Sequence record: KP869102
Strand: one strand, 5' to 3'
Length of the DNA: 64,000 nucleotides
Origin: Escherichia coli O157 typing phage 4
Shown: in pieces, positions 21,608-64,000 of the stretch
Numbering within the stretch: the first letter of the stretch is position 1
Layout of the letters: each line of letters opens with the position of its first letter
Made by a program: the position numbers and the translations under genes
The notes under the pieces: generated by a model
Told to the model about the DNA's origin: nothing
Seen by the model: only the letters and a program-made list of their open reading frames with translations
The model's database searches: none

Positions 21608-21609
21608 GG

Positions 21610-24493: not shown

Positions 24494-24517
24494 AGGCCCC
24501 CAGGGATCGGGGGCCGT
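24494..24517 (-). terminator. intrinsic terminator
   Basis: Hairpin GGCCCCC-AGGGATC-GGGGGCC preceded on plus strand by an A-rich run. Confidence 0.5.
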
Positions 24518-24519
24518 TA

Positions 24520-24881: not shown

Positions 24882-25263
24882 ATTTTCTATTCCTCTCAAA
24901 TAGGCGATCCGCCTCAGTTAAACAAATCTCATGGGCGTGATCTCTGGTTTTAGCTTCATCGAAAACCTGTTGTGCAAGGCTGCAGCGTAGGGAGACTGGA
25001 AGATCACTATAATAGGCGTTGACAAATGTTTGCGCGTCATACAGGTCGGAAAATACTTTACCCTTTCTATTATCGCCTTTGTCAACAATTGCAAGGATAA
25101 CAAGTACAATAGTTGCAACCACCCCCAGGAAAATAGATATAATAAACCATAAAAAGGCGGATCTACCCATCTTGCCAGCGATCCAGGCGTTAAACAAGGC
25201 AACTAATACGGCCAAAATAATAAATTCCATTCTATGTACCTCTTTTGCAGTTCTGTTTAACAA
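24859..25263 (-). CDS. hypothetical membrane protein
   Basis: 134 aa; two hydrophobic helices (FIILAVLVALFNAWIAG and FLWFIISIFLGVVATIVLVILAIV). Confidence 0.5.
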   Translation of the reverse strand: MLNRTAKEVHRMEFIILAVLVALFNAWIAGKMGRSAFLWFIISIFLGVVATIVLVILAIVDKGDNRKGKVFSDLYDAQTFVNAYYSDLPVSLRCSLAQQVFDEAKTRDHAHEICLTEADRLFERNRKYVGQPFK

Positions 25264-25294
25264 TAAGGCGGCAAATATGCCGCCTGTTACCTGA

Positions 25295-25675
25295 TTAAAA
25301 ATTATCGCCGTAAATCTTTCCGCTTTCTGCCCACACCACCACGCGGGGCATACTATCCCACACGTCTTGTTTTAGATTGAGCGCGTGCAATTCTTCGGTG
25401 GTGCCCATACCAGGCACGGGCTGATTGTATACTGCAAAACGACCACCTGCATAATCATAGGCCAGGGTTAAATCACACTGAATCATCTTTTTGATCATGG
25501 CGTTGAGCATAGCGTTAGCCGCATACTGGTCACGTTTTAAAGGCAACTCTTTGATTAGTTTGCGATAGTTTTCAATGTGATCGCACACTGTTTCACGTGG
25601 AAGATCTTTCATATCCTCGCGAAAGGTAACCAGGTTAAACATAACGGTGTCAATAGCTTTAGTAGTGTTTTTCAT
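25295..25675 (-). CDS. hypothetical protein
   Basis: ORF track 126 aa. Confidence 0.5.
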   Translation of the reverse strand: MKNTTKAIDTVMFNLVTFREDMKDLPRETVCDHIENYRKLIKELPLKRDQYAANAMLNAMIKKMIQCDLTLAYDYAGGRFAVYNQPVPGMGTTEELHALNLKQDVWDSMPRVVVWAESGKIYGDNF

Positions 25676-25766
25676 AATGTTTTCCTCTTTGTTTTGTGTG
25701 GGGCAAACGTCTTGCCCCCCCTTGAGTTTTAATATAGCAAGTTTTTAGATTATTGCAACACTTTAT

Positions 25767-26295
25767 TTATGAAAAACTCATCTCTCCATATTCATCCACA
25801 TCAAACCGCCAATCATTGGCCTCAATAAGGCCGATCAGGTTTTCGGTAGTGAACTGTTCTAGATAGGCCTCCTCCAGGTCTACGTAAACCTTGCGGGATA
25901 GCTCCCGTACCGTCTCGGTGATCAGCTCTTCCAGGTCTTCCACTTTGTTTTCTTGTTTGGCGGTCAGATCTAGCCAGGTGGTATCAATGTATCCGCTTAC
26001 AGTGTTTTCATGGCTGTAATGGCTGTACTTGTCGCGTTCAATACTGGCTGATAACTCGCCATCGTGCATTGTGCCAAACAAGTGACGAATTGATCGGAAC
26101 TTGGTCAGGGCCTTTACTTTACGCAAGAATTTTTCTAAATCCACGTTTTCAGCACTGATTGACGCGCCGTCACCCTGGCACCAAAAGCCGGACCAATGTA
26201 CATCGGTATCTTCAAGGCCGTACTCTGGAAAAACTTGCTCTTTATAATATTCAATTACACTTTCTGCGAAAAAATCCTCTCCGCTGTGTTCTTCT
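25767..26295 (-). CDS. hypothetical protein, N-terminus cut off by the assembly gap
   Basis: Track reports 125 aa from an internal GTG, but the frame stays open upstream to the N-run at 26296. Confidence 0.5.
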
Positions 26296-26305
26296 NNNNN
26301 NNNNN
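26296..26305. other. assembly gap (N10)
   Basis: Run of 10 N. Confidence 0.95.
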
Positions 26306-26448
26306 CTTCTTCTCAAGTTCTGCACGGCGGTCTCGTGCTTCTTTACGGGTTTTGAAATGTTCGTAGATGAAAATCATCTTGGTCTCCTTATTTGATGTTA
26401 TTCTTTGTATCGATCAGTTCACGGTATTCAATCATAGCAGGAGTGTCC
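26306..26448. repeat. exact 143-bp copy of 15977-16119 (contig-end overlap)
   Basis: Identical sequence by eye; contains the start of the 14842-16047 gene and the stop of the rIIA-like gene. Confidence 0.85.
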
Positions 26449-28370
26449 CGATATTTCAAGCCCACATGCTTCAAAAGTGGATATTTCTTTTCCAATCTTG
26501 CAATATAGGCCTTCCCGCACTTAACCCGGTTGGCGATTAAGATTTTGGCACGATGATTTAGCTCACTGTGCTTCCACGCGGTGTTACCTTCCCACTTGTG
26601 GAAATGTGGCCGATAATTTCCAAAATCCTGCATGGGGATAATTTTCCCTAATTGTCTATACAGGCTGTCATATGAAGTTTCATTTGCTGCGCGAGTCAGT
26701 AAGAATTTCCAGGCGTCCTCTTTCAACAAATGTTCCACATTTTTCTCTGTAACATACTGGCAATCAGGATTAGTCCAAAGCAGACGGGATTCTGATACCA
26801 GGTACAGGTCTTCCCCTTCAGGAATCTGGAGTGCCGCACGCACACGGTCATAATTTTGCTGGTAGATGTTACTCAGCTGTCCCAGCCAACAACTTCCACG
26901 TTGGATATCACCCTCATAAGGAATGCAGTGCTTAATCTTCTTGAACTCTGCCTTAGTAATACGTTCACGGCGGAAGTAACCATCCTTCTCAAGCTTTTTA
27001 ACCCAATAACCTGGCTCGTAATGAGTTTTTGTTTCACCTTTCTTCGCAGGTCGGCGAGGGAGCTCTGATAACAATTTGACCGTATCTGCAAAGAACGGGT
27101 GGTGTGCCGCTTCTTTAAACTCTTCCACCAGATCCGTGTTACGGCAATAGAAAACGTTGCGTCCGGTGATCTCGCTTAAGTAGTTACATTTATTTCGGTT
27201 ATATTTGCCGTCTCCGTCGTTAAATACAAGGTATACACCTCGTAAGAACTCCGACTTTCCGTAACGAGCATAGCCTATGCGGCCTTTATTTAAGCCGCCA
27301 GCGAAAATTTCACAATCGCCTAAGTCGCCAAGCCCTGTTTCTTCCCAACGGTTCCACATAAAGTTTTTGCCGAAGATGTGTCCGAACACCCCACTATTCT
27401 TCATCATTTCACGTGCTTCTGCTGAGGTTTTTGCCGTCTCCAGTTCTGCAACAACTTCTGCCCCGCGAAGACGTATACCTTCTTTAACAAAGGCCTCCAG
27501 GCGATCCTGGAATCCACCGTCGTCATGGCCCTCTATGGTCCATTCACGCCCAGGGTTAATATTGCAATCCCCGATAGGAATTTCCACGCAGATTGCAGGG
27601 TAATCGGTCAATGTCTCCAGGAACTTAGAGCGGTAAGGTTGGTGACCCATCACAACACGGCTCTCATCAGAACTGGTATAACCTTTCAGGATGGTCATTT
27701 TCCAGCCATCCTTCTCGTAATGATACTGTGCCTCAACCTTGTCACCTTCTAACATCTTACTGGTCATGGGATCGGTGACGGTGAACGGAAACTTCGCATA
27801 GCGTAAGCACGATGCAATAGCAGTGCGATATTTCAGGACATGCTCTTTCTTAACATGAAACTGAACTTTTACCCCGTTGTGCTCTTCAGTCTTCCGCTCG
27901 CGGATCTTGGTAACGTTTGGGATACCCTGATCCAAGAACAATAGATATGTGCTTTCAACACCATTGTGCACACTGATAACATCGAAAGTGTCCACCATGC
28001 TGAACGGAGCCTTTGAACCAACACCTTTATTACCTACCAGAGCATTACTGTTGCGCTTGGTTGACTCTCCAAGGTTCATGAACGTGTTGCGGACCATCTC
28101 TTCTGACATGCCCAATCCAACGTCCTGCACAAAGAAGTATGGTTCAAGGTCTGTAGGAGAGTGAATGATGATCGGTACATCACCCCGTCCAGACTCAACA
28201 TGGGAGTCTACAGCGTTGAAGATTGGTTCACGGCAGCTTGCCAGCACCTTATCTTCGTAAATCCCTTTAATAATTAGCCCAAAAGTCTCTTTGTTCAGAG
28301 AAATTGAGCCCCTGGTGACCTCCATATTTCCGGTTAGCACTGCTTTAGTTTCATTACTGTTTACAATCAT
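26388..28370 (-). CDS. rIIA: rIIA-like protein with N-terminal GHKL-type ATPase domain
   Basis: 660 aa; GHKL N-box REPIFNAVDSH, G1 box QDVGLGMS, G2 box GNKGVGSKA. Confidence 0.7.
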   Translation of the reverse strand: MIVNSNETKAVLTGNMEVTRGSISLNKETFGLIIKGIYEDKVLASCREPIFNAVDSHVESGRGDVPIIIHSPTDLEPYFFVQDVGLGMSEEMVRNTFMNLGESTKRNSNALVGNKGVGSKAPFSMVDTFDVISVHNGVESTYLLFLDQGIPNVTKIRERKTEEHNGVKVQFHVKKEHVLKYRTAIASCLRYAKFPFTVTDPMTSKMLEGDKVEAQYHYEKDGWKMTILKGYTSSDESRVVMGHQPYRSKFLETLTDYPAICVEIPIGDCNINPGREWTIEGHDDGGFQDRLEAFVKEGIRLRGAEVVAELETAKTSAEAREMMKNSGVFGHIFGKNFMWNRWEETGLGDLGDCEIFAGGLNKGRIGYARYGKSEFLRGVYLVFNDGDGKYNRNKCNYLSEITGRNVFYCRNTDLVEEFKEAAHHPFFADTVKLLSELPRRPAKKGETKTHYEPGYWVKKLEKDGYFRRERITKAEFKKIKHCIPYEGDIQRGSCWLGQLSNIYQQNYDRVRAALQIPEGEDLYLVSESRLLWTNPDCQYVTEKNVEHLLKEDAWKFLLTRAANETSYDSLYRQLGKIIPMQDFGNYRPHFHKWEGNTAWKHSELNHRAKILIANRVKCGKAYIARLEKKYPLLKHVGLKYRDTPAMIEYRELIDTKNNIK

Positions 28371-47573: not shown

Positions 47574-48617
47574 TTAAGCATAAGATATAGTGATCCATTG
47601 ACCGTTTACAAGTTTTTGGATAGCACCTGTCCAGTAATCACCTTGATAAGGGTGTTTATAAGCGTAGTTACCAGAGCACATCACATGTCCAGGGTAGACT
47701 CTTGACTCTCTGTAGGTGGTTTTGAAACGGTTTGCTATCCTTACATCGTCAACCCCTCTACTAGGCATAGGGATAGTAAGGTTACCACTACCGTCTGCGC
47801 TGTTACCATTTACCCTGCGGACCACGTTTCTTCCACCAACTGTTGCATATTGGCCTCTAACGGTTTCATCGTTACAATCAACTCTTCCACCTATTTGAGC
47901 GCTTCCGCAGGATTGTTGTCCGTTAACAGTGGCTCTTGGTATCGTGACCGCATTGGCATTTGCAGAGGAACTTTTTGCATCGTTGCATTCAAGATTTCCT
48001 TGGATAGCCAGTCTTGCACGGTTGGCAGTTATAGCATTGAGCTTCATAGCCGAAAACACAGGCTGCCCACCAGAAGGCTGAAATCTCCAACGGAACCCGT
48101 CTATTTGGTGAGAAGGATCATCAAGATCTGTGCCGTCAGCACCACCAATGTTGTCCATAATCCAGAAATCCATCATCGTCTTGTCTGAGGTTATGGTGGT
48201 ATATATTGCCGCATTGTCTGTTGACGCAGATGCAAACTCGATTCTTTGAAGGCCCAAAGTTTGAGTCTGAGTCATTATGTCTCCAGACTTGTCAACATAC
48301 AGATCGTCCATTTCTTCAGGCGAGTATACATTGAGAACTTGACGTGCAGCAGCTTTGTCTGGAACGTCTGCTAGATTATTAGTAACCCTTAAGAATCTAT
48401 TATCCCATCCTGGGACAACATCTTCTGTTAGATGCTTTAACCACGCAGAAAGCATGTGAAGTTCAAAGTTAACAACTTCACATGCCACTCTTTGTGTCAT
48501 ATCCCAACCTTTCAATCTCTCTTCTTTTTTTGGTTGAGACTTATTCAACTCTCCCGTATTTTCAAGCACAACATCCTGATTGGCCCAAATATCAAGAGGG
48601 ATAACTGGTTTAGTCAT
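47574..48617 (-). CDS. tail fibre protein (paralog of 49632-50672)
   Basis: 347 aa; N-terminus MTKPVIPLDIWANQD and C-terminus QKLVNGQWITISYA shared with the paralog; C-terminus resembles P2 gpH. Confidence 0.7.
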   Translation of the reverse strand: MTKPVIPLDIWANQDVVLENTGELNKSQPKKEERLKGWDMTQRVACEVVNFELHMLSAWLKHLTEDVVPGWDNRFLRVTNNLADVPDKAAARQVLNVYSPEEMDDLYVDKSGDIMTQTQTLGLQRIEFASASTDNAAIYTTITSDKTMMDFWIMDNIGGADGTDLDDPSHQIDGFRWRFQPSGGQPVFSAMKLNAITANRARLAIQGNLECNDAKSSSANANAVTIPRATVNGQQSCGSAQIGGRVDCNDETVRGQYATVGGRNVVRRVNGNSADGSGNLTIPMPSRGVDDVRIANRFKTTYRESRVYPGHVMCSGNYAYKHPYQGDYWTGAIQKLVNGQWITISYA

Positions 48618-49032: not shown

Positions 49033-49617
49033 TTAGAGGGTAGGTCGCTCCGGGAAGAAAATGTCAGGGGCTTTAGATGTATCTATTTCAAGAAGTTTTA
49101 CCCTGTACATTTTCAAATCTCTGATGTTACGTTTCTGGTCATCAGTAAGATCATATTCAAGGTCAATCATGTCTTGATAGGCACCAATTCTAGCAGTAGC
49201 CCAAGCAAGTTCTGTCTCTATGACACCCTCTGCCTGTTGAACAAAGAATTCATTATCTGTGACAAATTCATCACCAACTAAACGCAAAGCGTCGTGGTGA
49301 AGCATAATGTTTTCTGGTACCTCTTCTTTTTTGGCGATAACCACACGAAGACCTGGAGCAGGCCATAAGGCATCAGGTTCTTCTGTAGATGTCTTAAGAA
49401 TTCCCTTCTCGTCAACAAGTAGGAAGATACAACCCGGATTTTCTTGTCGTAATGTTCGTGACTGCACATACCAATCGCCATCATCATTACGTAAAAAATA
49501 CCCAGTGTATGCGGTGTAATCCTCAACCTCTTGGGGGGTCAGCTCCTTGGTTTCCTTGTTGGCGTGGTATTCGCCAGATCCCGGTTGGTAAAGTTTAAAC
49601 TCTTGAAGTATTTTCAT
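49033..49617 (-). CDS. tail fibre assembly chaperone (Tfa/gpG-like)
   Basis: 194 aa; C-terminus YRVKLLEIDTSKAPDIFFPERP matches the conserved Tfa C-terminal motif; directly downstream of a fibre gene. Confidence 0.7.
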   Translation of the reverse strand: MKILQEFKLYQPGSGEYHANKETKELTPQEVEDYTAYTGYFLRNDDGDWYVQSRTLRQENPGCIFLLVDEKGILKTSTEEPDALWPAPGLRVVIAKKEEVPENIMLHHDALRLVGDEFVTDNEFFVQQAEGVIETELAWATARIGAYQDMIDLEYDLTDDQKRNIRDLKMYRVKLLEIDTSKAPDIFFPERPTL

Positions 49618-49631: not shown

Positions 49632-50672
49632 CTATGCATAATTAACAGTGATCCATTGACCATTTACAAGTTTTTGTAAAGGTCCTGCCCAGTAGGTTGA
49701 ACCACGCATCTCTTTTTTGTCACCGAAATGCCAGCCTGTGACAACGTAGCCGTTGCGAATTGGAGATTCAGAAACGCCGTCAACAAGTCTTGCACCGATT
49801 CTGATGTCTTGCACACCTGTCTGCGGGATAGTGATTGTTACATCACCGTTACCGTTAGCCGTCACTCCATTCACAGAGCGCACCACATTTCTGTTACCGA
49901 CAACACAGTGCTGACTTCTTACAACCATACTGTCACAACTTGCACCACTATTAACATACACTGACCCAGTCGTCAACTGACTAGCCACATTACAGTTGGT
50001 GAATGTTGCTGTATTGCTGATAGTAAGGTTATTACACCTCATGTTATCGACAACTTCAACATTGCCGACCACTTTCAACAGCGCACGGTTAGCCGTGATC
50101 GCGTTAAGGTACATCAAAGTGAACTCTGGATTAATATCCGGCTGAGTTGGCTGGAATCTCCAACGAAACGCATCTACTGTAGATGTACCACCATCATCAA
50201 ACGACCCGGTATTATCACTTAACCCAAAGTCGAGAGTTGTCTTATCTGGGCCAATAGTTGTCTCTATCCAAGCCTTATCTGTCTCGGCAGCTTTAAAGTT
50301 GATACGTTGCAAACCCAATGGGCCTGTCATTGTATCACCTGTAACTTTTACATACCTGGCGTCTGCCTCTTCCTTAGTAATAATCCCAAGGTTTCTACGG
50401 GCAACAGGAATGTTCAAAAGATCACTCAAGTTATTATCACGTACCAGATAACGGCCTTCTTGAGCGGGGATCTGCTCGTCAGCAATGTATTTTGCCCAAG
50501 TTCCGAGCATATTGAAAATATAGTTAAGTTCTTCACATGAGGGCTTTTGACCAAGATCCCAACCTTTTCTCCACAAATCATCAATCGGGCGTAGCCTGTT
50601 CTGTCTGTGGGTGTTAGGCAGAACCTGATCCTCCTCTGCCCAAATCTCTAATGGAAAACTAGGTTTTGACAT
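49632..50672 (-). CDS. tail fibre protein (paralog of 47574-48617)
   Basis: 346 aa; N-terminus MSKPSFPLEIWAEED and C-terminus QKLVNGQWITVNYA. Confidence 0.7.
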   Translation of the reverse strand: MSKPSFPLEIWAEEDQVLPNTHRQNRLRPIDDLWRKGWDLGQKPSCEELNYIFNMLGTWAKYIADEQIPAQEGRYLVRDNNLSDLLNIPVARRNLGIITKEEADARYVKVTGDTMTGPLGLQRINFKAAETDKAWIETTIGPDKTTLDFGLSDNTGSFDDGGTSTVDAFRWRFQPTQPDINPEFTLMYLNAITANRALLKVVGNVEVVDNMRCNNLTISNTATFTNCNVASQLTTGSVYVNSGASCDSMVVRSQHCVVGNRNVVRSVNGVTANGNGDVTITIPQTGVQDIRIGARLVDGVSESPIRNGYVVTGWHFGDKKEMRGSTYWAGPLQKLVNGQWITVNYA

Positions 50673-50684: not shown

Positions 50685-52757
50685 TTATGAGAAGTCTGGC
50701 GGGACAACATCCTCTACATACCCTTTCAGAGCAACCTGCCCCATATGAAGCACGGTAGAATCTCTAGCGGTAACAGTGATGCTGTCAGACATTACTTGCG
50801 GGTATGCCCACACATACTGTTTTACCTCAGGGTATCTATACTCTATAGTTGCCATGTTTCCGCAAATACATCTCCATAAAAATTCTTGGTAATTCCTAGT
50901 TGGGTCGTAGCCATATACCGGAGCAAGCTCTTTACTAGGAACGAACCCTGCAAGGTATTGTATTTCAGACGGTTGCCAACCTAACTTAACGATAGGTATG
51001 TTTACAGACTCTTTTGCCTTTTCAATACCCCCCTGCATTACCCAATCGTAGCACTCGGTGCAGAAGAAATCAAGAGCACCTGCTTCTTTTTTATATTGGT
51101 CAGCAAGGTTCAGCTTTTGCGTAAGCTCGGTTTCCATAATGGTTGGGAAAAACAGCAGAGCTGTCATCTGAGCTGATGCAGCGTGTGCCTTTATTGCCTT
51201 TGAAATAGCCGCAATACGAGCGCCAAGCTTACCACGACAAAATGCTACATACTTGTCGTAAACACCGCCAGTTTTAGGATCGTCAATAGTCCCAATATCT
51301 AATGCATACTCACCTGTCTCATCATAAAACGCCTGCTTTGTAGGGTAATCATAAATACAAGGTCTACGAGTATCGGTATTGTACCACCACCATGGTTCAC
51401 CAACCTGCATAATCACTGGCAGGTTGTTTCTCATGGCGGCTGATGCAAAATTCTTAAATACTGCAGTAAGGAAATTCATACCCTCTTCAATGGTTGGAGA
51501 CAGGAGGTAGCTACAAGGTGTATACCCTGTTTTAGCGTAGTTATCGTTCCAGTCTCTTTGGGTCCATTCCAACGGACAGGCATCGCTGTAAAGCTCAAAA
51601 CTTACAGACTGCATAACGTCGAAGTTATGTCGTTTGGCATTGTACATAAAATCATCATGCCATTTATAAGCTGCAGCGTTTAGCGCTCCTGTTCTGTTTA
51701 TAGACCATTGGGTTCCTGACCATGTGTAGTCATAATAATGACTCATACCAACATAATGGTTTATGGTTCCGGTATAGCCCAGACGCTTGATATTGTTCAA
51801 CACCCTTAAAGGAGATACGTTCCACATATCGTCATATGCGGTGCAGATCCCAACGTCGTGCTCTTTAACCTGAATATTGTTAAGTTGCATCATTTTCCAG
51901 CCCGTGTCTGGCTGAAGCAGATCTAGGCGCAACTCACACTCTACATTTTCCGTTCTCGGGTCTGTGCTATTACTTACCCAATCTTTAGGCATAAGCGGTA
52001 TTAAAATCCTTCTCACCTGGCGAGGATCAACACCCATCATGTTGTTGTTCTGATCCATCCCGACGCAGTCCTCGAAATCAATATGAATCTCTGCAACATT
52101 CTTATCCTCTGAGATGCTGGCAGCATATTGAGCTAAAGGAACATAGATGATTGTGCCATCAACAAGGTCTACAGTCATAATCATCTTTTCAGGGGTGGAG
52201 AAGTTGCTGGCATTGGTTATTGACATTCTGAACCAAAGCTTGGTGTTTCTCATCTCATAGTGATCATCAAACCCAATACCGAAATGGTCATACTTATCAA
52301 CTGTTTCCCAAATGCACCCGGCCATACCTCCATATGTTCTTGACACTAAACGGTTAATACAACAGTTGTTATCTGCAACAATACAGGTACTTTCAGTCTG
52401 CTGAGTGGTTGTAACCCAATATCTTGGGTGAAACATTCTCTCCTCAACAGTATCCCAAGATATCCTGTCAAGATTCTCATCTGAAACTATTGTACATTTC
52501 GCCCTTTGTGTTCCAATCATTACCCCTTGGGATTTTGATGAAAACTCCATGAAGAAGCTTCGTGGCAACCTGTTGGGTAATTTGTCAACAATTTCCACGG
52601 GGATCTCAATACTGGTTGCCCCAACTGGGATAGTTATATCGCCCTCAACATGATCATAATCCCTACCAGGAACGGCAGTATCCTGAACTGTGCGGTAATG
52701 AAACCGTGCAGCCATTGTAGAGTAATCACGGTAAGGTTTAAAAACAGCTGTTGCCAT
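50685..52757 (-). CDS. tail-associated structural protein, function unknown
   Basis: 690 aa; late operon between J-like and fibre genes; Trp/Tyr-rich. Confidence 0.55.
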   Translation of the reverse strand: MATAVFKPYRDYSTMAARFHYRTVQDTAVPGRDYDHVEGDITIPVGATSIEIPVEIVDKLPNRLPRSFFMEFSSKSQGVMIGTQRAKCTIVSDENLDRISWDTVEERMFHPRYWVTTTQQTESTCIVADNNCCINRLVSRTYGGMAGCIWETVDKYDHFGIGFDDHYEMRNTKLWFRMSITNASNFSTPEKMIMTVDLVDGTIIYVPLAQYAASISEDKNVAEIHIDFEDCVGMDQNNNMMGVDPRQVRRILIPLMPKDWVSNSTDPRTENVECELRLDLLQPDTGWKMMQLNNIQVKEHDVGICTAYDDMWNVSPLRVLNNIKRLGYTGTINHYVGMSHYYDYTWSGTQWSINRTGALNAAAYKWHDDFMYNAKRHNFDVMQSVSFELYSDACPLEWTQRDWNDNYAKTGYTPCSYLLSPTIEEGMNFLTAVFKNFASAAMRNNLPVIMQVGEPWWWYNTDTRRPCIYDYPTKQAFYDETGEYALDIGTIDDPKTGGVYDKYVAFCRGKLGARIAAISKAIKAHAASAQMTALLFFPTIMETELTQKLNLADQYKKEAGALDFFCTECYDWVMQGGIEKAKESVNIPIVKLGWQPSEIQYLAGFVPSKELAPVYGYDPTRNYQEFLWRCICGNMATIEYRYPEVKQYVWAYPQVMSDSITVTARDSTVLHMGQVALKGYVEDVVPPDFS

Positions 52758-55050: not shown

Positions 55051-58000
55051 TTAGTCGTGAGACTCGTTCCAAGGTCCTTGGAAGCTTGAGTTAGAACGGC
55101 TTACCACAACAGTAGGACAGGATATTGCGACCCCTGTTACAGAAGACGTTGACCATGGTGTGTAGATTTCAACAACAATATCTATGGTTTGTTCACCAAG
55201 ACCTGTTATCCCTACCGCACACATGCCGTTGTTGTCGTTTCCGTACTTCTTCCCTGCAAGGATTTGATGTCCGGCTATCCAAACGTTGAGCTGGGAGCCA
55301 GACAAGGTTCCGTTTAGTTTAAAGAAGAATGTTACGTTCTTACCTTGTCCTGAAACGTTGTCCACATATCTCCACCTCCAACGGCAAACCCTCTGCTGCG
55401 AGTTATATACTGGAGGACAGTCACCGTAGGTTCTGTGTGCAACTATTGCACCTTCGAACTGGTTAGCACGGATAACAGAAGCTTCTACACGCCCACGGAA
55501 GGTACCTCCGGTTGCATCTATGGTGCCCCTAAAGCTACCATTATTGGCATAAACATCCCCACGGAAGGTACCACTAGTGGCGTTAACTGCCCCTGTGAAG
55601 TTACCAGAACTAGCGTTGATGTTGCCTTTCACCCACACATCCATAAATTGGGCGTGCCCGTTCTTGTTAATATACCAACCGTATTTATGGTACCCGTTGC
55701 CATCGTAGTTGTTTGACGAGATTTCTTGTGCGATCTTGGCAGAGGAGATCGTGCCATTCTCTATAAAAGCGTCTTTCAAGAACGCTTGGTTGTTCTTGAT
55801 TGCGAAAGCAAGGGTTGCTGTTCCATTTCCTGGGTTGTATACCGCAAAATTGTTTGCACTAACCATGAAGTAGGATTGAACTTGGCCTCCAGACCCTTCC
55901 ATCCCCAACTGAATACCTGCAACATATTTATTCCCTGCGGAGTCTACCTGTATTTTTGTGCCCCATTGAGCATTTACTTTACCCTCTAAGTCGGTTACAG
56001 CCTTAGATGTTGTAGCTACTGCAGCCCTGATCTCAGACACATCCCCAACATCATCCATGATCTCCTGCTTAGCAACAGCAAGTTCTTGACGAATAGCTGA
56101 CGCTGTGCCGTTGATAAGGTCCACAGTGGCTTTGTTGGTATCGGAAATTGTAGCATCCAGCGCTGTTTTTGTGGAGGTCAGTTTTCCATCCAAAGCATCA
56201 ATCGCTTGCTTGTTGGTAGAAATCTCCCCACGTGCAGAAGTTATCTGCTCTGACAGTGCAGATGTTTTCTGATTCAGCAGGTCAGTGGTGGCCTTGTTGG
56301 TATTGGCAATCAAGGTGTTGAGGTCAGTTTTTGCGGTAGTTATCTTTCCGTCAAGGGTGGTATAGTTTTTAGATACCGTCGCGTTTGTCTGACTAATCTT
56401 TTGATCCAGAGTTTCAGATGTCCTGTTCAAAAGATCCACAGTGGCTTGGTTAGTGCTCAAGATGCTTGCGTCAAGTTCTGTTCTCTGAGTATTGATCTTA
56501 CCATCTAGAGTTTTATCTCCGGCTAAATACCCGCTCTCAACTCCCTCTAGCTGCTCTACCAGTTCACCTTTGGCGGCAACCAATTTCTCATCTAAAGCCT
56601 CTGTCTTTTTGTTCAGAAGATCAGTAGTTGCTTTATTGGTTGTCTCAATCAGAGATGCCAATCTTCCACTTTCAGTGTTCAGATCGTTGGTGAACTTGTT
56701 CTGTGCAGCAACAAGTTTCCTATCCAGCGCTGTGATATTGCCATTGACATCCTCAAACTTCTGAGTTGTCTCTGTAACTACCGCACCTATTCTGTCCCCA
56801 AGTTGCTGGAATGCCTCATCTACCCTACCATCCATGTATTTATTAAGCTCTGTGACACGATTTTCAACCTCTTCAATAGAGGAATCCAAAGTGCTCATCA
56901 ACTCTTTATAAGTTTCTGTCTTTTTGAATTCAGCATCTATCTGAGGCATCAAATCCTCGATAGAGGTGTAGCAGTGTGCAGCGCATTCTACAAACTGAGA
57001 GCTACCAAAAGCGTTTGTGGTTCGAATATACCAATAATAAACCTTATCGTTCTGCAGGCCTTCAGATGTCCAAGTTGAACCAACACCCATACGGGTGGCG
57101 TTTGAAGTAACGGTTGCATCACTGGTGTCTGGCAACCTTGTCATACCAGATGTCCAAAAGTCATACTGGGTGCTAACACTTGCTAAATCCCTACTATGCG
57201 GAATCAAGGTGATAGCAAAGTATCCTTGCTTAACCTCTACAGAAACCGGAGCTTCAGGTGCCTGAATGTTAAACTCACAGTACGCTTCTGGAGATACACC
57301 ACCTTTATAGGATGTTGCAACCACGGTTGCTGTGTATGACCCTTTGGTCAAGCCTTCTACTCGGACAAACTGCTCAACTGTCTGTGCTGTCCAAACAATC
57401 TCTCCGTTCTTTCTTACCTGCACAATATTTTGAGCGTAAGTCCCAACGTTGTCCCAAGCCAAAACACCGTGAGTTACTTCCCCAGCTTGGAGAACGGAAT
57501 ATCTGAAGTTTTGCGGTTGAGCTACACCAGATGGAGATATTGGAATATCTACATCGCCAGAATCCGGAAGTTGTCCTGTGGCATCATTCCACTCTTTAGC
57601 ATCTTGACGAAGTTTTACCTTGACACCACCCTTTTTGGTAAACTCCCATTCAAGAACTCTCATTTCTTGGCCCACTATACCAATACTTGGGAGGTCCATT
57701 GTAACGTAACGACCAGGTTTAAATTTGAAACCTCGCATATTGCAGGTGACTTCAATAATCCTGCCAGCTCTGGCACGTCTTAGGAAGATTGCAGAAACAC
57801 GCTGAGCTTGATAAGGACTGGTAACAAAGCGATAGTCTATATCGATTATCTTTCTTTCTCCATCCTTCTCTATCCACTCTGGGACAAACACTGATGGAAA
57901 ATCTGTTTCAGAATACCCTTTGGTAGGACTGGTGAATCTGCCAGTTATTGTGTTGGATCTTTTGTCAAATGAGGCTTCCGGATAGATCTTGACCTCACCA

Positions 58001-58890
58001 CAGACACAATCCTCACTCAGTGTCATTGTTGCCGGGCCATAGTATGCACCAACCAGCAAACCATACTTACCAGCTACATAGCTGAGATCTGCGCCACAAG
58101 CTTTCAGCATTTCTGCCATAATACTTGCTGGGGCCTCATCCATATCGAACTCGCCATTAATTGTGTAACGGCGCTCACTGGTTCCGTCTGCGTTTTTTAC
58201 CGCCTCGTCGCATATGTTGGCAGCCTCCTTGAAGGACTCCCAGTTGATGGTTTCGTCAGGACATTTAAGGTACGTTCTTAAATAGTCTAGAATCACCAAG
58301 GCTGCGTTATTGGTGTACACCTCTTTACTGATACGAGGATCATAGCATTTTTTACCAACCTTAACGAGTGTAACGTTTGGCAACCCAAAAGGAAACTTGT
58401 TAGGGTCAAACTTGAAGCTGGCACGTAGCCAACTGATCCCTCTACCTATCATGTCTGGTGACCACGATGGGCAGTGTGTCCCCATGAAAGGATCAGCTGT
58501 TTTTCTGTCGTTATGTAGCTCCCACGATACCAAATCCCCATATGAGGAAATAGGATTACCGTCGATAAGTATATCCTCTATACCTTCCAAAGGGTGATTG
58601 GCAAGAACAATAGCACAATGGAGAGTTCTGTCTCTATCCTGCTCCAAAAACGCAAGCAATCCGGATGTGCGTGTCTTCCCATACACTACAGAGCAAGGTG
58701 CAGCAGAAGATCTGAGAAGCTTTTGTCTATCTTGCTGACTTCTGTAAGATTTGTTGCCCTCAAAAATCTTATCCAGAGTTCTGGTGGTAACAGTGTTCAG
58801 GCTGTCAGCCAGAGCTGCCTTGGATGCGTTCCAGTCATAACTTGAAGATCTTGCAGAAGCAACGATGTTATCAATCATTGCAATTGGCAT
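55051..58890 (-). CDS. lambda J-like tail tip / host-specificity protein with expanded coiled-coil repeat array
   Basis: 1279 aa; segments QGYFAITLIPH...YDFW...YYWYIRTTNAFGSSQFVE and NKYVAGIQLGMEG...FMVSANNFAVYNPGNG recalled as matching lambda J; central heptad repeats of about 300 aa. Confidence 0.75.
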   Translation of the reverse strand: MPIAMIDNIVASARSSSYDWNASKAALADSLNTVTTRTLDKIFEGNKSYRSQQDRQKLLRSSAAPCSVVYGKTRTSGLLAFLEQDRDRTLHCAIVLANHPLEGIEDILIDGNPISSYGDLVSWELHNDRKTADPFMGTHCPSWSPDMIGRGISWLRASFKFDPNKFPFGLPNVTLVKVGKKCYDPRISKEVYTNNAALVILDYLRTYLKCPDETINWESFKEAANICDEAVKNADGTSERRYTINGEFDMDEAPASIMAEMLKACGADLSYVAGKYGLLVGAYYGPATMTLSEDCVCGEVKIYPEASFDKRSNTITGRFTSPTKGYSETDFPSVFVPEWIEKDGERKIIDIDYRFVTSPYQAQRVSAIFLRRARAGRIIEVTCNMRGFKFKPGRYVTMDLPSIGIVGQEMRVLEWEFTKKGGVKVKLRQDAKEWNDATGQLPDSGDVDIPISPSGVAQPQNFRYSVLQAGEVTHGVLAWDNVGTYAQNIVQVRKNGEIVWTAQTVEQFVRVEGLTKGSYTATVVATSYKGGVSPEAYCEFNIQAPEAPVSVEVKQGYFAITLIPHSRDLASVSTQYDFWTSGMTRLPDTSDATVTSNATRMGVGSTWTSEGLQNDKVYYWYIRTTNAFGSSQFVECAAHCYTSIEDLMPQIDAEFKKTETYKELMSTLDSSIEEVENRVTELNKYMDGRVDEAFQQLGDRIGAVVTETTQKFEDVNGNITALDRKLVAAQNKFTNDLNTESGRLASLIETTNKATTDLLNKKTEALDEKLVAAKGELVEQLEGVESGYLAGDKTLDGKINTQRTELDASILSTNQATVDLLNRTSETLDQKISQTNATVSKNYTTLDGKITTAKTDLNTLIANTNKATTDLLNQKTSALSEQITSARGEISTNKQAIDALDGKLTSTKTALDATISDTNKATVDLINGTASAIRQELAVAKQEIMDDVGDVSEIRAAVATTSKAVTDLEGKVNAQWGTKIQVDSAGNKYVAGIQLGMEGSGGQVQSYFMVSANNFAVYNPGNGTATLAFAIKNNQAFLKDAFIENGTISSAKIAQEISSNNYDGNGYHKYGWYINKNGHAQFMDVWVKGNINASSGNFTGAVNATSGTFRGDVYANNGSFRGTIDATGGTFRGRVEASVIRANQFEGAIVAHRTYGDCPPVYNSQQRVCRWRWRYVDNVSGQGKNVTFFFKLNGTLSGSQLNVWIAGHQILAGKKYGNDNNGMCAVGITGLGEQTIDIVVEIYTPWSTSSVTGVAISCPTVVVSRSNSSFQGPWNESHD

Positions 58891-59327
58891 TAATACCTCC
58901 AGACATCAACAACGATAGAATCTTTCATGTCGAACATAAAGACCCCTTTATCACCTTTCGCCCAAATCTGGTTGTTCCAGAACACACCAGCGGTGAGCCC
59001 GTTCAGACCTTCGAAAATGACAATATCTCCACGCTGAACCTGTTTAGGAGTGTCCAGGCGAGTCATAAAGAAATCAAAAATAGTGGGCAAATGTGTGGTT
59101 TTGAAATGAAGCATGCACCATCTCTTGCTTTCCAACTCTGTTTTATACGTTCCTTCGAAGTTAGAAAGAAAATCTGTTCCGTATTGGGCATCAACACACT
59201 TAGCCGCAAAAGTGCAACAATCGTGGAATCCCCATTCAAAAGGTATGGTGGCCTCTTCGTCAAATACTTTCCACAACCTTTCTTGCCAGTCCACTAGACG
59301 AGGATGTGTGCTCATTAAACCTCCCAA
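58890..59327 (-). CDS. minor tail protein, possible NlpC/P60-like
   Basis: 145 aa; directly upstream of the J-like gene; Cys-containing FHDCCTFAAKC. Confidence 0.5.
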   Translation of the reverse strand: MGGLMSTHPRLVDWQERLWKVFDEEATIPFEWGFHDCCTFAAKCVDAQYGTDFLSNFEGTYKTELESKRWCMLHFKTTHLPTIFDFFMTRLDTPKQVQRGDIVIFEGLNGLTAGVFWNNQIWAKGDKGVFMFDMKDSIVVDVWRY

Positions 59328-59881
59328 ATGATCGGGCGGCTCGCCACCTGATCCACATATTTAAAAAATCTGTCATTATCGTTTCTTGAGCTGTGGCTTT
59401 CCTCCGTGTACCGATAAGGAAAACCTCTTAACCAACTGTTGAAGATGGAAGAGATGGATATGGACAAAGCACTATTCTCACCCGTCTGAATAGCCATATC
59501 TGTTATAAGTCCGTCAAACAAGCCATTAGTTGTAACAGGCAGACCATTCTCCATAGCGGTAATGTACAACGTGGCACGACAACCAGAATACTCCGTCTTC
59601 AGCAGATCACCCACATACTTAGGATCAAACCCGTTTAATGTTGCTACCACAGATCCGAAGTTGGTGGCATCTTTCTCAGACACAGCAGTTAATGTTGCTG
59701 ATCCACCTATCCCTATAAAATGTTGTCCCTCAATTACTACAACACCAGTACCTGAGCACACCCTGACAGTTCCTGTCGGGAGCTCCAGTTTTGCAGCAAT
59801 CAAGATCTCAACACCATCAAGCTCCAGTTTTTCAAGAAATAAATTATCTAATGGCGCTCTAATCATCTTAGAAATCCTCAA
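59315..59881 (-). CDS. minor tail protein
   Basis: 188 aa; position in the tail-tip cassette. Confidence 0.5.
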   Translation of the reverse strand: MRISKMIRAPLDNLFLEKLELDGVEILIAAKLELPTGTVRVCSGTGVVVIEGQHFIGIGGSATLTAVSEKDATNFGSVVATLNGFDPKYVGDLLKTEYSGCRATLYITAMENGLPVTTNGLFDGLITDMAIQTGENSALSISISSIFNSWLRGFPYRYTEESHSSRNDNDRFFKYVDQVASRPIIWEV

Positions 59882-60458
59882 AGAAGTTGATAACTATATT
59901 ATCACCTTTTTGCATAGCATCGACTTTTTGCTTAATTTTATAAATATCTCTGATATGAAACCTGCCCTTCGGAGATTGAGTTATTATCTTCATAGTGTCC
60001 CCTGCGGCAATAGGTTTTCTAAGTCTTGGAGATATGCTTATAACAGCAGACCCAACACCATCGCTACGCACTGGAGCTGTTACCACTTTCAATTCATCAT
60101 TGACAGATATTTTATCTCCGGCTCTGGCTATGTCTCTGTTTGGCTCCCACCCAACCGTCTTCAAAAAATCGTCGTTACCAGTAGGCCCAAGGGCGATTGG
60201 CTCATTAGCTGTTACTGAGTGACCGTAAGTTTTAATAAGAAAGATGTTCCCATCTTTATACACCTGATCAACAAAACTCTTAAGCTCTAGCAACTGTGAC
60301 TCGCTGATATTGGAGACCGTCAAAGTGCCTTTCCAGTTAGGTGTGGCATAGGTTACTTTTTGCGTTTTACCTGTAAACGGACTTTTAAACGTAACAATAT
60401 CTGCCAACAGCTCCAATCTAATATCTGGAAGGTATCTAGGCCTTTCCCATAAAAACAT
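59868..60458 (-). CDS. minor tail protein
   Basis: 196 aa; position in the tail-tip cassette. Confidence 0.5.
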   Translation of the reverse strand: MFLWERPRYLPDIRLELLADIVTFKSPFTGKTQKVTYATPNWKGTLTVSNISESQLLELKSFVDQVYKDGNIFLIKTYGHSVTANEPIALGPTGNDDFLKTVGWEPNRDIARAGDKISVNDELKVVTAPVRSDGVGSAVISISPRLRKPIAAGDTMKIITQSPKGRFHIRDIYKIKQKVDAMQKGDNIVINFFEDF

Positions 60459-60520
60459 TGTGCCTCCAGGTTAAACAATCATGATAGTTATTTTACCAGA
60501 TTTTGAGTTAATACGCAATA

Positions 60521-60550
60521 CAAACAAAAAGCCCCCGCCGAAGCGAGGGC
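60521..60550 (-). terminator. intrinsic terminator (imperfect CCCCGCCGAAGCGAGGG hairpin)
   Basis: 8-bp stem with one mismatch, preceded on plus strand by CAAACAAAAA. Confidence 0.5.
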
Positions 60551-60556
60551 AATACT

Positions 60557-60889
60557 TTAAAGTACTTCCAAGGTGGATACTGATGGGTCGAACATGTTCA
60601 ACCTTATCGGATCTACAACTTTTCCGCTTTTAGAGATGATGTTTTCTGCATCCTCGTCCAGAGCCAGAACGTTAACATAAAACAATTCACTTTTCTCGCA
60701 AACTGGGTAGACAACCATGTTGCCAAACTCATCTTCGGCCTCATAAGTATCTCCAGTCTCTGTGTAAATGAACCCGACAACCTCTACAAGAAGGGTGTTT
60801 TGCAACACCTCATTCTCGTAAAAGCCGATTTCGTCCATGAAACCATTAAAATCCTCCCTGTCAGTAAACCCAAGGGTAAAAGTATTCAT
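60557..60889 (-). CDS. hypothetical acidic protein
   Basis: ORF track 110 aa; followed by a terminator. Confidence 0.5.
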   Translation of the reverse strand: MNTFTLGFTDREDFNGFMDEIGFYENEVLQNTLLVEVVGFIYTETGDTYEAEDEFGNMVVYPVCEKSELFYVNVLALDEDAENIISKSGKVVDPIRLNMFDPSVSTLEVL

Positions 60890-63800
60890 TATTCAACACT
60901 CTCCATCATAAGCTGGGTGTCTGTCAGTGCAGAGTTCCAAACCCTTATGTCCTTAATATGACCAAATAAGTGTCTTTCACCTGTCGCCGTTTGACCACCA
61001 ATGCGGATGAAAGCGCCTCCTGCCAGGAATTCCCAAGAAGACTGCGTTTCCGTGCTCACCAGTCCGTTAGCAAAAGAGCAGGTTTTACCATCATCTTTTA
61101 TCCTGAACCCAATTTTCAATTTACGGGCTTTAGCCATCTCGTAAACACGTCTGTTTGACCCTCCAATATCACAGTATGGGTGACCATCATCCGCAATATT
61201 TGTTGCAGAGCCAAATCCCATGATAAATGCAGCACCGGATTGATGACCTTCTGTATCAATAACCCTAGGAGCTGCGTTAGGAGCTTTGCCCCAGCCTCTC
61301 CAGTTGGCATCAACCGTAGCGGCGATAGTGAACGGTCTGGGCGCTAGGTTATCCGTCATTGGAAATTTACAAAGATCTGCCGCCCTGGTTACAGGTGAAG
61401 ACCCTGTAGGGATAAACGAGGACTCACAAGATCCTAACTCAAACTGAGGTATTGCAACGTCAACCCAATCTCCTACGGCATGTTGAGAACTCTTCGGCGG
61501 GACAATCTGGAATTGGCACCCGATATTCCTGTCAGAGGCCACTGCCTCAAACGTAGCAACAACCCTTGTCCAAGCAGGTCCGGCTGTTTGCCATCTCTCA
61601 GCTTTTACTTTAATTCTCCCCGCTGCACCACCTGTTGTTTCCACTTCAAGTGTTGACAGGTTAACATAAGCATCGCCTTGAAATGTTGTGGTGGATCCGT
61701 CGTACATGTCGAATCTTATACGCAGTCTCTGGTGAGCTTTACCGCCTCTTGCAAGGATAGACCCAGTACAGAATTTCTCAGCACCTGTTACATCGGCACC
61801 TCTGGTGGCTGGAACTACAGCCAAGTTTAACGCCGTTGTTTCTACACCGGACGTGGTGTTTACTGTAAATCTTGCACCTTTTGTGCCGTTGGTGTTTGTT
61901 ACAGTGCTACCGACAGTAATCGCCTGCTGTGCACCCCATTTACTCGGGTCTTCACTGTTAAGCATCAGGTTTGTCCTTTGCCCCTCAATAAGCAACCCAT
62001 CTCTTTCAAAACGTGGTTGGTTTGCTTGTGCAACAGCCATAACACCGCGCTTAGTGAAATAGGTTGCTGTAGAAGGTCTGGAGAAGACCATCTCACCTTC
62101 ACCCAGTGCAGGTTTTAGGTTAGAGGTTAAAGGCAACCACAAGTCAGGCATAACTGGAGCGGTGGTGTTTTCTGGGAAGCTTGTTCTCTTCCAAGGGCTC
62201 CAAGCCATTCCGCTGCCAAGGTTATTGTAATACCTTTCCCATGTTCCGCCAAGATACATTTTATATATCTGGATACAACCTGTTCCTTCGTTAGCGGAGT
62301 TTCTAAGCACGATCAGCGTACCTGCCATCTGCTGACCTGGTGGGTAATTTCTTTCCGCTGTGGCGTTGGCATTCGCCTCTTGATGGTAAATCCCTTCACG
62401 ATCTGCCTTGTAGTCGTTAAGGTCATTAGTTCCCAACCCTTGACCACGGTGCTGAATAACTTTGTTCCACGCTCTGTGGTTTCCTTGCTCTATGGAACGA
62501 GTGTATAGCTGGTCTAAACGACCTGCCATCTGGAAAGCGTAGTTTCCAGAAAATGCCACAGACAACCCGCCAACAACCATGGAACCTTCAGGTCCGTTGA
62601 CGTTACCAGCCATTATTTTAGAAGGGTTGTTATTCCCGAACTGGTTGTTCCAGTCTGCACCTGTGTGGCATACAAAACCACCAGGAGCTGAGAAAGTGCC
62701 ATCTTTGTTGAAGTTGTAGAATCTATGGGCTGAACCAACAACATCTCTAACAATGACCTGACCCGCCTCTGGGGTAGATCTGAACTCGGCCTGTCCTTTG
62801 AGACCAGCACCATTACCGCATTTAGAGGTAAATGTACCGTTAGTTAAATCCTCTGTTCCATCTGATGCACACTGGAATCCTGCATTAGAGAATAACGCCT
62901 TTCTAGGACTGCCGTAACACAAATAGTCAAGACCGTCTGCCCATAGCTCGACTTTTGGCATATTCATTTTGCTCATCACAGCATAGCGTTCAGCAGTGCC
63001 TATATAGTGCCACTGTGTGCCGCCGCCAGTGTAGAACCCAGAGGTACCTTTGAAGTCAACAATAGGTCTGGTATTGGTGTTGTTATCTCCAAGAACAGCG
63101 AGATTCAAATCTGCTGACTGGAGAGGTGCAACGAACTTAACACCGTCCTGATTGTTTGTTACAGAGCCGACCTGGTAATCTTGCTCTCTGGTAAACACTT
63201 CGACAACATTTCTACTTGCGTATATGCTGACAGGGAAAGCACGAGCCTCTACATAGAAAGCAACATACTCTTGTTTACCCCTTGTTGGAGCAACCATCCC
63301 AAGAAGTGCTTTTTCATTCTGGTAGAAATTTACTACCCCGTAGAAAGAGTCTCCTCTGTCTGTCCAACCACCAGTCCTATAGTGACACTGTAAGGTAGCA
63401 CAGTTCATAGGGTCATTTCCAGATGACGATCTGGTAACTATGGTAATATCAGTACCAGTTGCTGGAGCATAGTACGGATCTGTTCTAACGATGATCGGGT
63501 AGTATTTCCCATCTTCCATCCCTGCGGTTCTTGGCAGTGTTAAGAAGTCTTTCACACCTGCTGCTATAGGAACTTTGAACAGATTCTGAGCATCTGCTAA
63601 AGTTGTAGCCCCAGTACCACCTGCGGCTTGAGGTAAAGGTTCCCACTTGGCCTTCCGGTTGTTATAAACACCCCATTCCAGAGTGCCGTTACCGGATTCG
63701 TCCATCCCACCATCCCAGACAACCATCTTGGCGGCTTTCTTGGACCCCCAGAAGCCTCTTTCTGCCCCTGAACTACGGATCCATTCTCCAAGACCCCAGT

Positions 63801-64000
63801 TTGTCAGCTGACCAGTAAGATCCCCAACCTGCATGTATTTAGGGCAGTCTAACACGCCATCTTCGCGGAAACCTAAATATCTATGAGTTTCAGATCCTTT
63901 TGCACCTTTGTGCAGGTGGATTGTCAACCAAGCCTTATTGTCGTTTCTTACCTCAGAGTAGATCCTATATCCATGCTCAAGGACACCGTCAGCGCTGTAT
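60889..64000 (-). CDS. large beta-rich tail fibre/spike-like protein with C-terminal LamG-like lectin domain; N-terminus outside window
   Basis: Track starts at TTG 63927, but the frame stays open to position 64000; C-terminal HLFGHIKDIRVWNSALTDTQL resembles LamG domains; Gly/Thr/Asn-rich. Confidence 0.7.
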   Translation of the reverse strand, partial: YSADGVLEHGYRIYSEVRNDNKAWLTIHLHKGAKGSETHRYLGFREDGVLDCPKYMQVGDLTGQLTNWGLGEWIRSSGAERGFWGSKKAAKMVVWDGGMDESGNGTLEWGVYNNRKAKWEPLPQAAGGTGATTLADAQNLFKVPIAAGVKDFLTLPRTAGMEDGKYYPIIVRTDPYYAPATGTDITIVTRSSSGNDPMNCATLQCHYRTGGWTDRGDSFYGVVNFYQNEKALLGMVAPTRGKQEYVAFYVEARAFPVSIYASRNVVEVFTREQDYQVGSVTNNQDGVKFVAPLQSADLNLAVLGDNNTNTRPIVDFKGTSGFYTGGGTQWHYIGTAERYAVMSKMNMPKVELWADGLDYLCYGSPRKALFSNAGFQCASDGTEDLTNGTFTSKCGNGAGLKGQAEFRSTPEAGQVIVRDVVGSAHRFYNFNKDGTFSAPGGFVCHTGADWNNQFGNNNPSKIMAGNVNGPEGSMVVGGLSVAFSGNYAFQMAGRLDQLYTRSIEQGNHRAWNKVIQHRGQGLGTNDLNDYKADREGIYHQEANANATAERNYPPGQQMAGTLIVLRNSANEGTGCIQIYKMYLGGTWERYYNNLGSGMAWSPWKRTSFPENTTAPVMPDLWLPLTSNLKPALGEGEMVFSRPSTATYFTKRGVMAVAQANQPRFERDGLLIEGQRTNLMLNSEDPSKWGAQQAITVGSTVTNTNGTKGARFTVNTTSGVETTALNLAVVPATRGADVTGAEKFCTGSILARGGKAHQRLRIRFDMYDGSTTTFQGDAYVNLSTLEVETTGGAAGRIKVKAERWQTAGPAWTRVVATFEAVASDRNIGCQFQIVPPKSSQHAVGDWVDVAIPQFELGSCESSFIPTGSSPVTRAADLCKFPMTDNLAPRPFTIAATVDANWRGWGKAPNAAPRVIDTEGHQSGAAFIMGFGSATNIADDGHPYCDIGGSNRRVYEMAKARKLKIGFRIKDDGKTCSFANGLVSTETQSSWEFLAGGAFIRIGGQTATGERHLFGHIKDIRVWNSALTDTQLMMESVE

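Follow-up and report, generated by a model that had tools for sequence, protein, structure and literature searches.

The 64,000-nucleotide stretch of Escherichia coli O157 typing phage 4 that was analysed here (sequence record KP869102; the whole stretch is called the window) ends in a long minus-strand open reading frame (ORF), whose product the original prediction described as a beta-rich, fibre-like protein with a C-terminal LamG/ConA-like domain, encoded at the place where lambda-like phages have the gene of the helical tape measure protein. This raises the question of whether the tape measure gene lies further upstream, beyond the window, or whether the tail module of this phage is unconventional. 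The answer is that the ORF encodes the orthologue of rV5 gp41, a known lateral tail fibre of the genus Vequintavirus, and no substitute for a tape measure; as judged from the genomes of colinear relatives, the tape measure has an ordinary gene of its own further upstream, outside the window, and nothing is missing. The supposed absence was a false alarm that came from the window edge and from the lambda-like assumption. We regard the ORF as encoding the last 70% of a lateral tail fibre that, like two other large ones of Vequintavirus, varies between alleles; its exchangeable tip would bind a surface glycan, and a small acidic protein may assist the tip. The probability of this reading as a whole, including the mechanism proposed below, is about 0.85, and it is directly supported as regards what the protein is, how it is built from modules, where the junction lies, and the linkage of tip and small gene in one cassette.

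The fibre gene and the location of the tape measure gene

A megablast search with the region matched 119 phage records, nearly all from Escherichia phages that belong to the genus Vequintavirus (rV5-like myoviruses of ~137 kb). The DNA identity was 85-96% to 35 phage genomes across most of the query, and it was 95-96% over the full query for nomine, CarlMeissner (BASEL Bas48) and others. CarlMeissner and nomine have the very same fibre allele as the window, and positions 40649-64000 of the window are colinear with both genomes at ~95.6%, save one variable stretch in another gene. The phage is a contractile-tailed Vequintavirus, to which the lambda-like framing of the locus does not apply. The minus-strand frame from 63999 to 60892 contains zero stops and encodes 1036 residues, followed by the stop codon at 60889-60891; the ORF that had been predicted to encode more than 1037 residues at 60889-64000 is thus real, but its end at 64000 was placed one base out of frame. 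As the ORF runs off the window edge, the N-terminus is cut and no start codon can be assigned, and the alignment to the 1479-residue CarlMeissner orthologue begins at residue 444. In CarlMeissner (bas48_0026) and nomine (nomine_24), this 1479-residue orthologue is annotated as lateral tail fibre protein or tail fibre protein, and the window protein matches the tail fibre family phrog_6578 with an E value of 3e-240, well outside the range of chance matches. On both sides, the flanking genes of the fibre locus are identical in kind to those of rV5, and rV5 gp41, a protein of 1272 residues with a Peptidase_S74 end, has been detected in virions by mass spectrometry (PMC3606486). The fibre protein as such is therefore already known, with a tail fibre annotation in dozens of near-identical genomes and with published allelic variation at the locus.

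Where, then, is the tape measure? In CarlMeissner and nomine, the genes upstream of the fibre gene encode, in this order, another large fibre protein, of the rV5 gp42 type, a small fibre protein that resembles an adaptor, the baseplate, spike, hub and tube-initiator proteins, and then a tape measure of 778 residues, which is itself preceded by the sheath and tube genes. This tape measure (bas48_0018 and nomine_16, respectively) has an E value of 0 with phrog_5255 and matches a further twelve PHROGs of tape measures. Projected onto the window numbering, it would be found at ~72.4-74.8 kb, i.e. 8.4 kb past the edge. Extending the analysis beyond position 64000 by means of the relatives' genomes thereby bore out the first of the two original options, namely that the tape measure lies further upstream. 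The fibre gene occupies a different position, as in these colinear genomes it follows the tube initiator, hub, spike and baseplate genes and two further fibre genes.

The second option was an unconventional tail module, in which the fibre-like protein fills the functional place of the tape measure. The sole support for it comes from the position of the gene directly upstream of siphovirus-type tail-tip genes, among them a homologue of lambda J and a member of a Dit-like family. However, the phage is a myovirus, its near-identical relatives encode an ordinary tape measure between their tube genes and the gene of the baseplate hub, and a terminator-like hairpin lies between the fibre gene and the downstream cassette. 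Because the siphovirus-type genes sit inside a myovirus baseplate/fibre cluster, with that hairpin in between, the arrangement of fibre and tail-tip genes says nothing on the place of the tape measure. The protein itself also argues against a substitution, as it has a strong tail fibre homology and only ~6% predicted helix, and as no tape measure homology, which had been named as one of the findings that would count against a fibre, was detected among its Pfam, PHROG and NCBIfam matches, which without exception are to families of tail fibre or tail proteins. The AlphaFold2 model of the last 403 residues (mean predicted local distance difference test score, pLDDT, of 73) contains 41% strand and 6% helix according to DSSP. 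The model of the first 640 residues (monomer, 28 sequences), which with a pLDDT of 39 is of poor confidence, has likewise 6% helix and consists mostly of strand and coil. In a crude propensity scan, 7% of the windows were helix-prone in the fibre protein, versus 28% in the true tape measure of CarlMeissner, and the predicted beta-rich nature of the protein thus held up in models and scan alike. Tape measures such as bas48_0018 (phrog_5255) are helical, they are located between tube/chaperone genes and hub, and they match tape measure families, whereas the fibre protein does none of this and resembles them only in being long and tail-associated. A functional replacement of the tape measure is refuted for the closest relatives, and for the window it is so improbable that it can be set aside.

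A conserved shaft and an exchangeable tip cassette

All allele types of Vequintavirus share the full-length residues 1-1049, the last of which corresponds to residue 606 of the window protein, and thereafter they diverge completely. The orthologues of rV5, CarlMeissner and nomine are encoded at the same locus, have the same 1049 N-terminal residues, and are 88-96% identical to the window protein over the part seen here; with the rV5-type allele (P0045), the amino acid identity is 88% through residue 606, and there is none beyond. At the DNA level, the window is 97% identical to rV5 from 58001 to 60555, unrelated from 60556 to 62380, and homologous again from 62381, with an identity that climbs from 65% to >95% by 62981. 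Three kinds of tips are found at the same junction: a tip with a gene transfer agent (GTA) spike domain and a LamG-like domain, as in the window, a Peptidase_S74 tip (PF13884), as in rV5 gp41, and a Collar-type tip (PF07484), which resembles T4 gp37. The swapped DNA (~60556-62380) carries not only the tip module but also a small ORF of 110 residues. Whereas rV5 itself has the self-cleaving chaperone end of the Peptidase_S74 type and no small ORF, the allele of the window combines the GTA-spike/LamG tip with the 110-residue ORF, and neither of these two elements is present in the rV5 genome.

Allelic variation of the three largest fibre genes of Vequintavirinae has been published, and one variable stretch lies 10-14 kb from the tape measure start (PMC8594841, S5C Fig). 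The calculated position of the fibre gene, 9.4-13.9 kb from the tape measure start, matches that stretch. What the present analysis adds is solely the exact point of the junction and the finding that the swapped cassette comprises two genes, and no new kind of system is described. The locus is one of the published host-range hot spots of rV5-like phages, a group with wide use in phage therapy and biocontrol. For receptor prediction and fibre engineering, it helps to know the exact junction at residue 606 and to know that a small partner gene travels with the tip. The features of the locus are compiled in the table.

Table. Features of the fibre locus and of the adjacent tail-tip region in window coordinates (aa, amino acid residues of the window protein unless stated otherwise).
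Feature	Position	Strand	Basis or remark
Lateral tail fibre gene (rV5 gp41 orthologue)	60889..63999	(-)	C-terminal 1036 codons + stop; N-terminal ~443 codons beyond window edge
Conserved shaft, aa 1-606 (full-length aa 444-1049)	62182..63999	(-)	identity to rV5-type allele; shared by all allele types
'PL..GGTGA' fibre repeat motif, aa 121-143	63571-63639	(-)	within shaft
Knob-like domain, aa ~520-606, just ahead of swap junction	62182..62442	(-)	internal repeat; PHROG and weak R-pyocin matches
Replaceable C-terminal module, aa 607-1036 (430 aa), allele-specific fibre tip	60892..62181	(-)	present in 35 of ~120 Vequintavirus records
GTA 'head spike fibre' type domain, aa 670-874	61378..61992	(-)	NCBIfam NF048003
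C-terminal LamG/ConA-like beta-sandwich, aa ~878-1036	60892..61368	(-)	predicted structure; Pfam sub-threshold
110-aa acidic ORF (isoelectric point 4.05)	60557..60889	(-)	start overlaps fibre stop (TAATG); co-inherited with C-terminal module
Terminator-like GC-rich hairpin and T-run	60531..60550	(-)	pattern scan: 8-bp stem, 7 GC pairs, then TTTTTGTTTG
Siphovirus-type tail-tip genes within contractile-tail baseplate/fibre cluster	55051-60458	(-)	Pfam, PHROG and PDB matches

The part of the protein ahead of the junction has the build of a fibre shaft. In the 1479-residue orthologue, residues 46-103, which in our case lie beyond the window edge, match Tail_spike_N (PF18668, the TSP1/gp66-type anchor) with an E value of 3e-10, and this anchor is found in all full-length homologues listed. 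In solved structures, the family profile matches the N-terminal parts of phage tailspike and tail fibre chains, with tailspike proteins 3 and 4 (TSP3, TSP4) among them. The PF18668-type domain is the anchor that joins tailspikes such as those of CBA120 and G7C into branched assemblies. The shaft consists of repeated units, each with a 'W.PL..GGTGA' motif that is followed by a knob-like domain. The knob directly ahead of the junction is a diverged copy of the unit at full-length residues ~318-400 (internal repeat in BLASTP, 29% identity, E 2e-9), residues 519-606 match the tail fibre families phrog_8239 and phrog_6614, and the profile match of the knob to R-pyocin fibres is weak (6cl5, E 0.026). 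A Foldseek search with the low-confidence shaft model gave a probability of 0.96 for the R2 pyocin fibre and also matched T4 gp34, but at very low TM-scores, so that these matches are weak hints only. Natural variants of the same allele exist that have 1198 residues (P0017-P0031, e.g. in Escherichia phage S127 BCL3) and in which one repeat unit of ~281 residues is gone (full-length residues ~332-546); they apparently arose by recombination between repeated 'GGTGA/knob' units.

The tip and the small ORF behave as one unit. The ORF starts on the last base of the fibre stop codon, and directly after it follows the terminator-like hairpin, which already belongs to the block that is common to the alleles. 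Megablast counted 34 phage records with the 110-residue ORF and 35 with the tip module, versus 119-120 with the genes on either side. The same pairing exists far outside the genus. Side or lateral tail fibres from the T1-like, T5-like, Nonagvirus and lambdoid lineages end in a sequence that is 41-50% identical to the tip module over the whole length of the module, which was detected in 205 records of the phage collection. In tunus and tinuso (T1-like), IrisVonRoten (T5-like), JenP1 (Nonagvirus) and phage 21 (lambdoid), the C-terminal ~400 residues are homologous end to end with the window tip, whereas their N-terminal anchors and shafts are wholly different (lambda Stf-type PF08400, T5 LtfA-type and others); these phages have non-contractile tails, and several of them have a third, distal fibre gene that is absent in the window. 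By tblastn, homologues of the small protein with 92 residues were found in phage 21, IrisVonRoten, tunus and JenP1, with 35-41% identity over residues 1-79/80, or in case of tunus 31% over residues 1-96, and in all four phages, which are of unrelated lineages, the gene starts ≤15 nt from the end of the fibre gene that carries the same tip module, with 41-49% identity to the window tip over the C-terminal ~400 residues. Across the phage collection, homologues of the 110-residue protein occur in at least 160 records.

In profile searches, no Pfam or PDB match was obtained for this small protein family; the protein is a member of phrog_1361, whose function is unannotated. A word-indexed homology search gave two near-identical proteins only, and an exhaustive search of 1.84 billion proteins gave just 22 representatives; a few of these are long and repetitive and probably matched through their composition. 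The position of the ORF is more telling, as it occupies the place that tfa has after stf in lambda, and as the S74 allele, which lacks the ORF, has a self-cleaving intramolecular chaperone instead. By this analogy, the 110-residue protein is a candidate for an assembly chaperone or a bound accessory of the tip. The more general idea, for which we see about even odds, is that the tip and the small ORF form a portable two-gene cassette that has been moved between T1-like, T5-like, Nonagvirus and lambdoid coliphages and Vequintavirus, and that the proteins of ~92-110 residues constitute an undescribed family of fibre assembly or accessory proteins in the role of Tfa or of the S74 chaperone.

What the tip may bind

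The tip module begins with a linker, which is followed by the GTA head-spike-fibre domain and by the LamG-like beta-sandwich. The first domain is recognized by NF048003 (GTA_spike_fiber) with 80.5 bits versus a cut-off of 36, and residues 637-879 match the head spike fibre Rcc01080 of the Rhodobacter capsulatus GTA (RcGTA; PDB 6tb9, 6tb9_F3) with E 4.7e-7 as single sequence and 2.5e-12 as profile. The AlphaFold2 model predicts a beta-sandwich for this domain, with pLDDT values that mostly are ~80-95 per 10-residue block and dip to 66-78. For the C-terminal domain, the LamG/ConA-like assignment stands at the fold level, as judged from predicted structure and Foldseek, but it does not extend to a Pfam membership, as Laminin_G_3 reached only 16.6-21.9 bits on residues 977-1029 versus a gathering score of 27.6, and as only the last third of the profile was covered. 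The predicted tip contains two beta-sandwiches, and its C-terminal domain has the curved two-sheet jelly-roll fold that characterizes LamG domains; Foldseek agrees and adds the baseplate of E217. The further structural matches are non-catalytic binding modules (CBM40, pentraxin, LG/LNS, neurotoxin Hc), sialidase lectin modules, and the alginate-binding module of a lyase. The homology to Rcc01080 is detectable at the sequence level and concerns one tip domain. Rcc01080 is a head decoration of 325 residues, of which one subunit sits on a pentameric base (PMC7296036), whereas the GTA domain of the window protein is placed near the end of a tail fibre of ~1479 residues and is followed by the extra LamG-like domain.

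With this modular build, the following mechanism can be proposed. The fibre would be a homotrimer that is hung on a branched fibre network via its N-terminal anchor, and the distal tandem beta-sandwich tip would reversibly bind a host surface polysaccharide, which may be O-antigen, capsule or another glycan. Such a binding would contribute to host range, and an exchange of the cassette would alter it. The small acidic protein may serve as assembly chaperone of the tip, or as bound accessory, and could thereby stand in for the self-cleaving S74 chaperone. A binding of glycans by the tip is proposed because the homologous RcGTA head spike fibre binds capsular polysaccharide (PMC10218006), because the fold matches are of the lectin type, and because the lateral fibres of siphoviruses are held to bind O-antigen (PMC8594841). 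A preprint on receptor prediction (10.64898/2026.04.02.716166) attributes the NGR receptor to another fibre, of the deacetylase type, and is silent on the rV5 gp41-type fibre. LtfA/LtfB of the T5-like phage DT57C were considered as model for the module and rejected, as these proteins end in S74 domains.

Several points weigh against this mechanism. Domains with a LamG fold can dock proteins and not only bind sugars, and the ligand of the tip is something that we infer. The best structural matches are in fact the fibre-docking baseplate wedge proteins of Pa193 (gp46) and of E217. With 41-50% identity between lineages, the module is just moderately variable, which is unusual for a determinant of specificity. 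The small protein is without recognizable family, the shaft model is of low confidence, and the trimeric state and the anchoring partner are extrapolated. A further point is that in three siphovirus lineages the small ORF is followed by another fibre gene with a conserved N-terminal peptide, which hints at docking.

The module could accordingly be a docking platform, perhaps together with the small acidic protein, that holds a further fibre or spike and thereby branches the network. In IrisVonRoten, tunus and JenP1, the fibre proteins encoded after the small ORF share the N-terminal peptide 'MVTKTVIPTDITKLK' and have variable C-termini, and a conserved peptide on a variable body is the pattern that is expected if a distal fibre plugs into a conserved socket. 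The wedge proteins among the best structural matches hold a tail fibre (PMC11456595), and the fibres of Vequintavirus are branched (PMC8594841; PMC13450770), which would also fit to such a role. However, the Vequintavirus cassette stops at the small ORF and includes no third gene. Neither the window nor the scanned part of the CarlMeissner record (3583-137623, ~97% of the genome) contains the conserved N-terminal peptide; the search of both for a distal-fibre partner with the siphovirus peptide gave no convincing match but coiled-coil-like noise only. In phage 21, it is the gene of a membrane protein and not of a fibre that comes after the small ORF, and the capsule binding of the GTA homologue (PMC10218006) also counts against docking. 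We thus consider a docking function of the tip unlikely, though it is the main alternative.

As a separate observation, the genes after the small ORF in IrisVonRoten, tunus and JenP1 (L004 5289-7013, L005 4292-5029 and L006 4289-5344) all start with 'M(V/A)T(K/V)T(V/I)IP(T/S)DIT(K/T)LK' and continue with unrelated bodies, with a Collar-like motif being discernible by eye in the gene of IrisVonRoten. In terms of sequence, the shared peptide looks like a common plug for interchangeable distal fibres.

Could the tip instead be an enzyme that degrades a surface polysaccharide, for instance a glycanase or lyase built on a ConA-like jelly roll, similar to other 'Swiss army knife' components of Vequintavirus? 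The ConA-like superfamily has glucanases and lyases among its members, the fibre proteins encoded nearby have glycosidase or deacetylase domains (PMC8594841), and sialidase lectin modules as well as the alginate-binding module of a lyase are among the structural matches. These modules, like CBM40, pentraxin, LG/LNS and neurotoxin Hc, are all non-catalytic, and no hydrolase or lyase family was found among the Pfam, NCBIfam and PHROG matches. Because every structural match is to a non-catalytic module, an enzymatic tip is clearly less likely than a binding tip, and we consider it very improbable. The reversible binding of a surface glycan thus is the role that we favour for the tip.

Neighbouring tail genes and the assembly of the window

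Past the terminator-like hairpin follow genes for a protein of 196 residues (PHROG 'distal tail protein' family), a 188-residue tail protein, a 145-residue DUF6950 protein and a J-like protein of 1279 residues, and then wedge genes of the Baseplate_J type. The tail-tip cassette that had been proposed downstream of the fibre gene therefore exists insofar as siphovirus-type genes, namely a lambda J homologue and a member of the PHROG 'distal tail protein' family, are present, but homologues of lambda M, L, K and I were not detected. For the proteins of 110, 196 and 188 residues no Pfam families were found, for that of 145 residues only DUF6950, and there were no PDB sequence matches. The 1279-residue protein matches lambda gpJ (PDB 8iyk_J, E 6e-28, residues 497-683 on J 666-849), its residues 954-1116 also match a C-terminal gpJ fragment (8xcj_Z), and Pfam recognizes Phage_Tail_Tip and Ig_J_second. 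The gpJ match is confined to the C-terminal two-thirds, i.e. to the Ig/FN3 domains and the central fibre. A similarity of these tail-tip ORFs to siphovirus PY54 is noted in the rV5 record.

Within the tail region, the sole break of colinearity with CarlMeissner and nomine is at 56035-56902, in the gene of the J-like protein. This protein has 1279 residues in the window, as has rV5 gp37, versus 1199 in CarlMeissner, and the length difference thus indicates another allelic segment. Further along the minus strand, a fibre protein of 690 residues (50685-52757) combines an N-terminal domain of the N4 gp65 'non-contractile tail sheath' type with TIM-barrel domains and a Calx-beta domain; its counterpart in the literature is the deacetylase-type fibre linked to the ECA/NGR glycan receptor of vequintaviruses (PMC8594841; preprint 10.64898/2026.04.02.716166). 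Two paralogous short tail fibre genes for proteins of 347 and 346 residues (47574-48617 and 49632-50672, minus strand) have a 62-nt repeat with 82% identity at their 3' ends, and a tail fibre assembly gene of the Caudo_TAP type (49033-49617, minus strand) lies between them.

The window is a scaffold of four pieces that are joined by runs of 10 N (16121-16130, 16441-16450, 26296-26305) and that are out of the true genome order, with repeats between 21-329 and 16131-16439 and between 15976-16119 and 26306-26449. Piece 1 (1-16120) maps to CarlMeissner 76571-61186, piece 2 (310 nt) is a copy of the first part of piece 1 with 98% identity, and piece 3 (16451-26295) maps to CarlMeissner 95132-85058 and belongs elsewhere. 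Piece 4 (26306-64000) opens with 144 nt that are identical to the end of piece 1, and pieces 1 and 4 therefore truly abut. The fibre locus is well inside piece 4, so that the misordered scaffold leaves the finding unaffected. No tRNA genes and no Rfam families were found in the window. Between the genes of DNA polymerase and primase/helicase, where CarlMeissner has ~46 nt, the minus strand contains an ORF of 244 residues with HNH_3 and AP2 domains (6858-7592), which by its domains probably is a homing endonuclease. Finally, 18 unannotated 'Campylobacter phage' records (within MG065635-MG065690, host Campylobacter jejuni) match the fibre region, with six listed at 92.5-93.5% identity, and the naming of these records looks doubtful.

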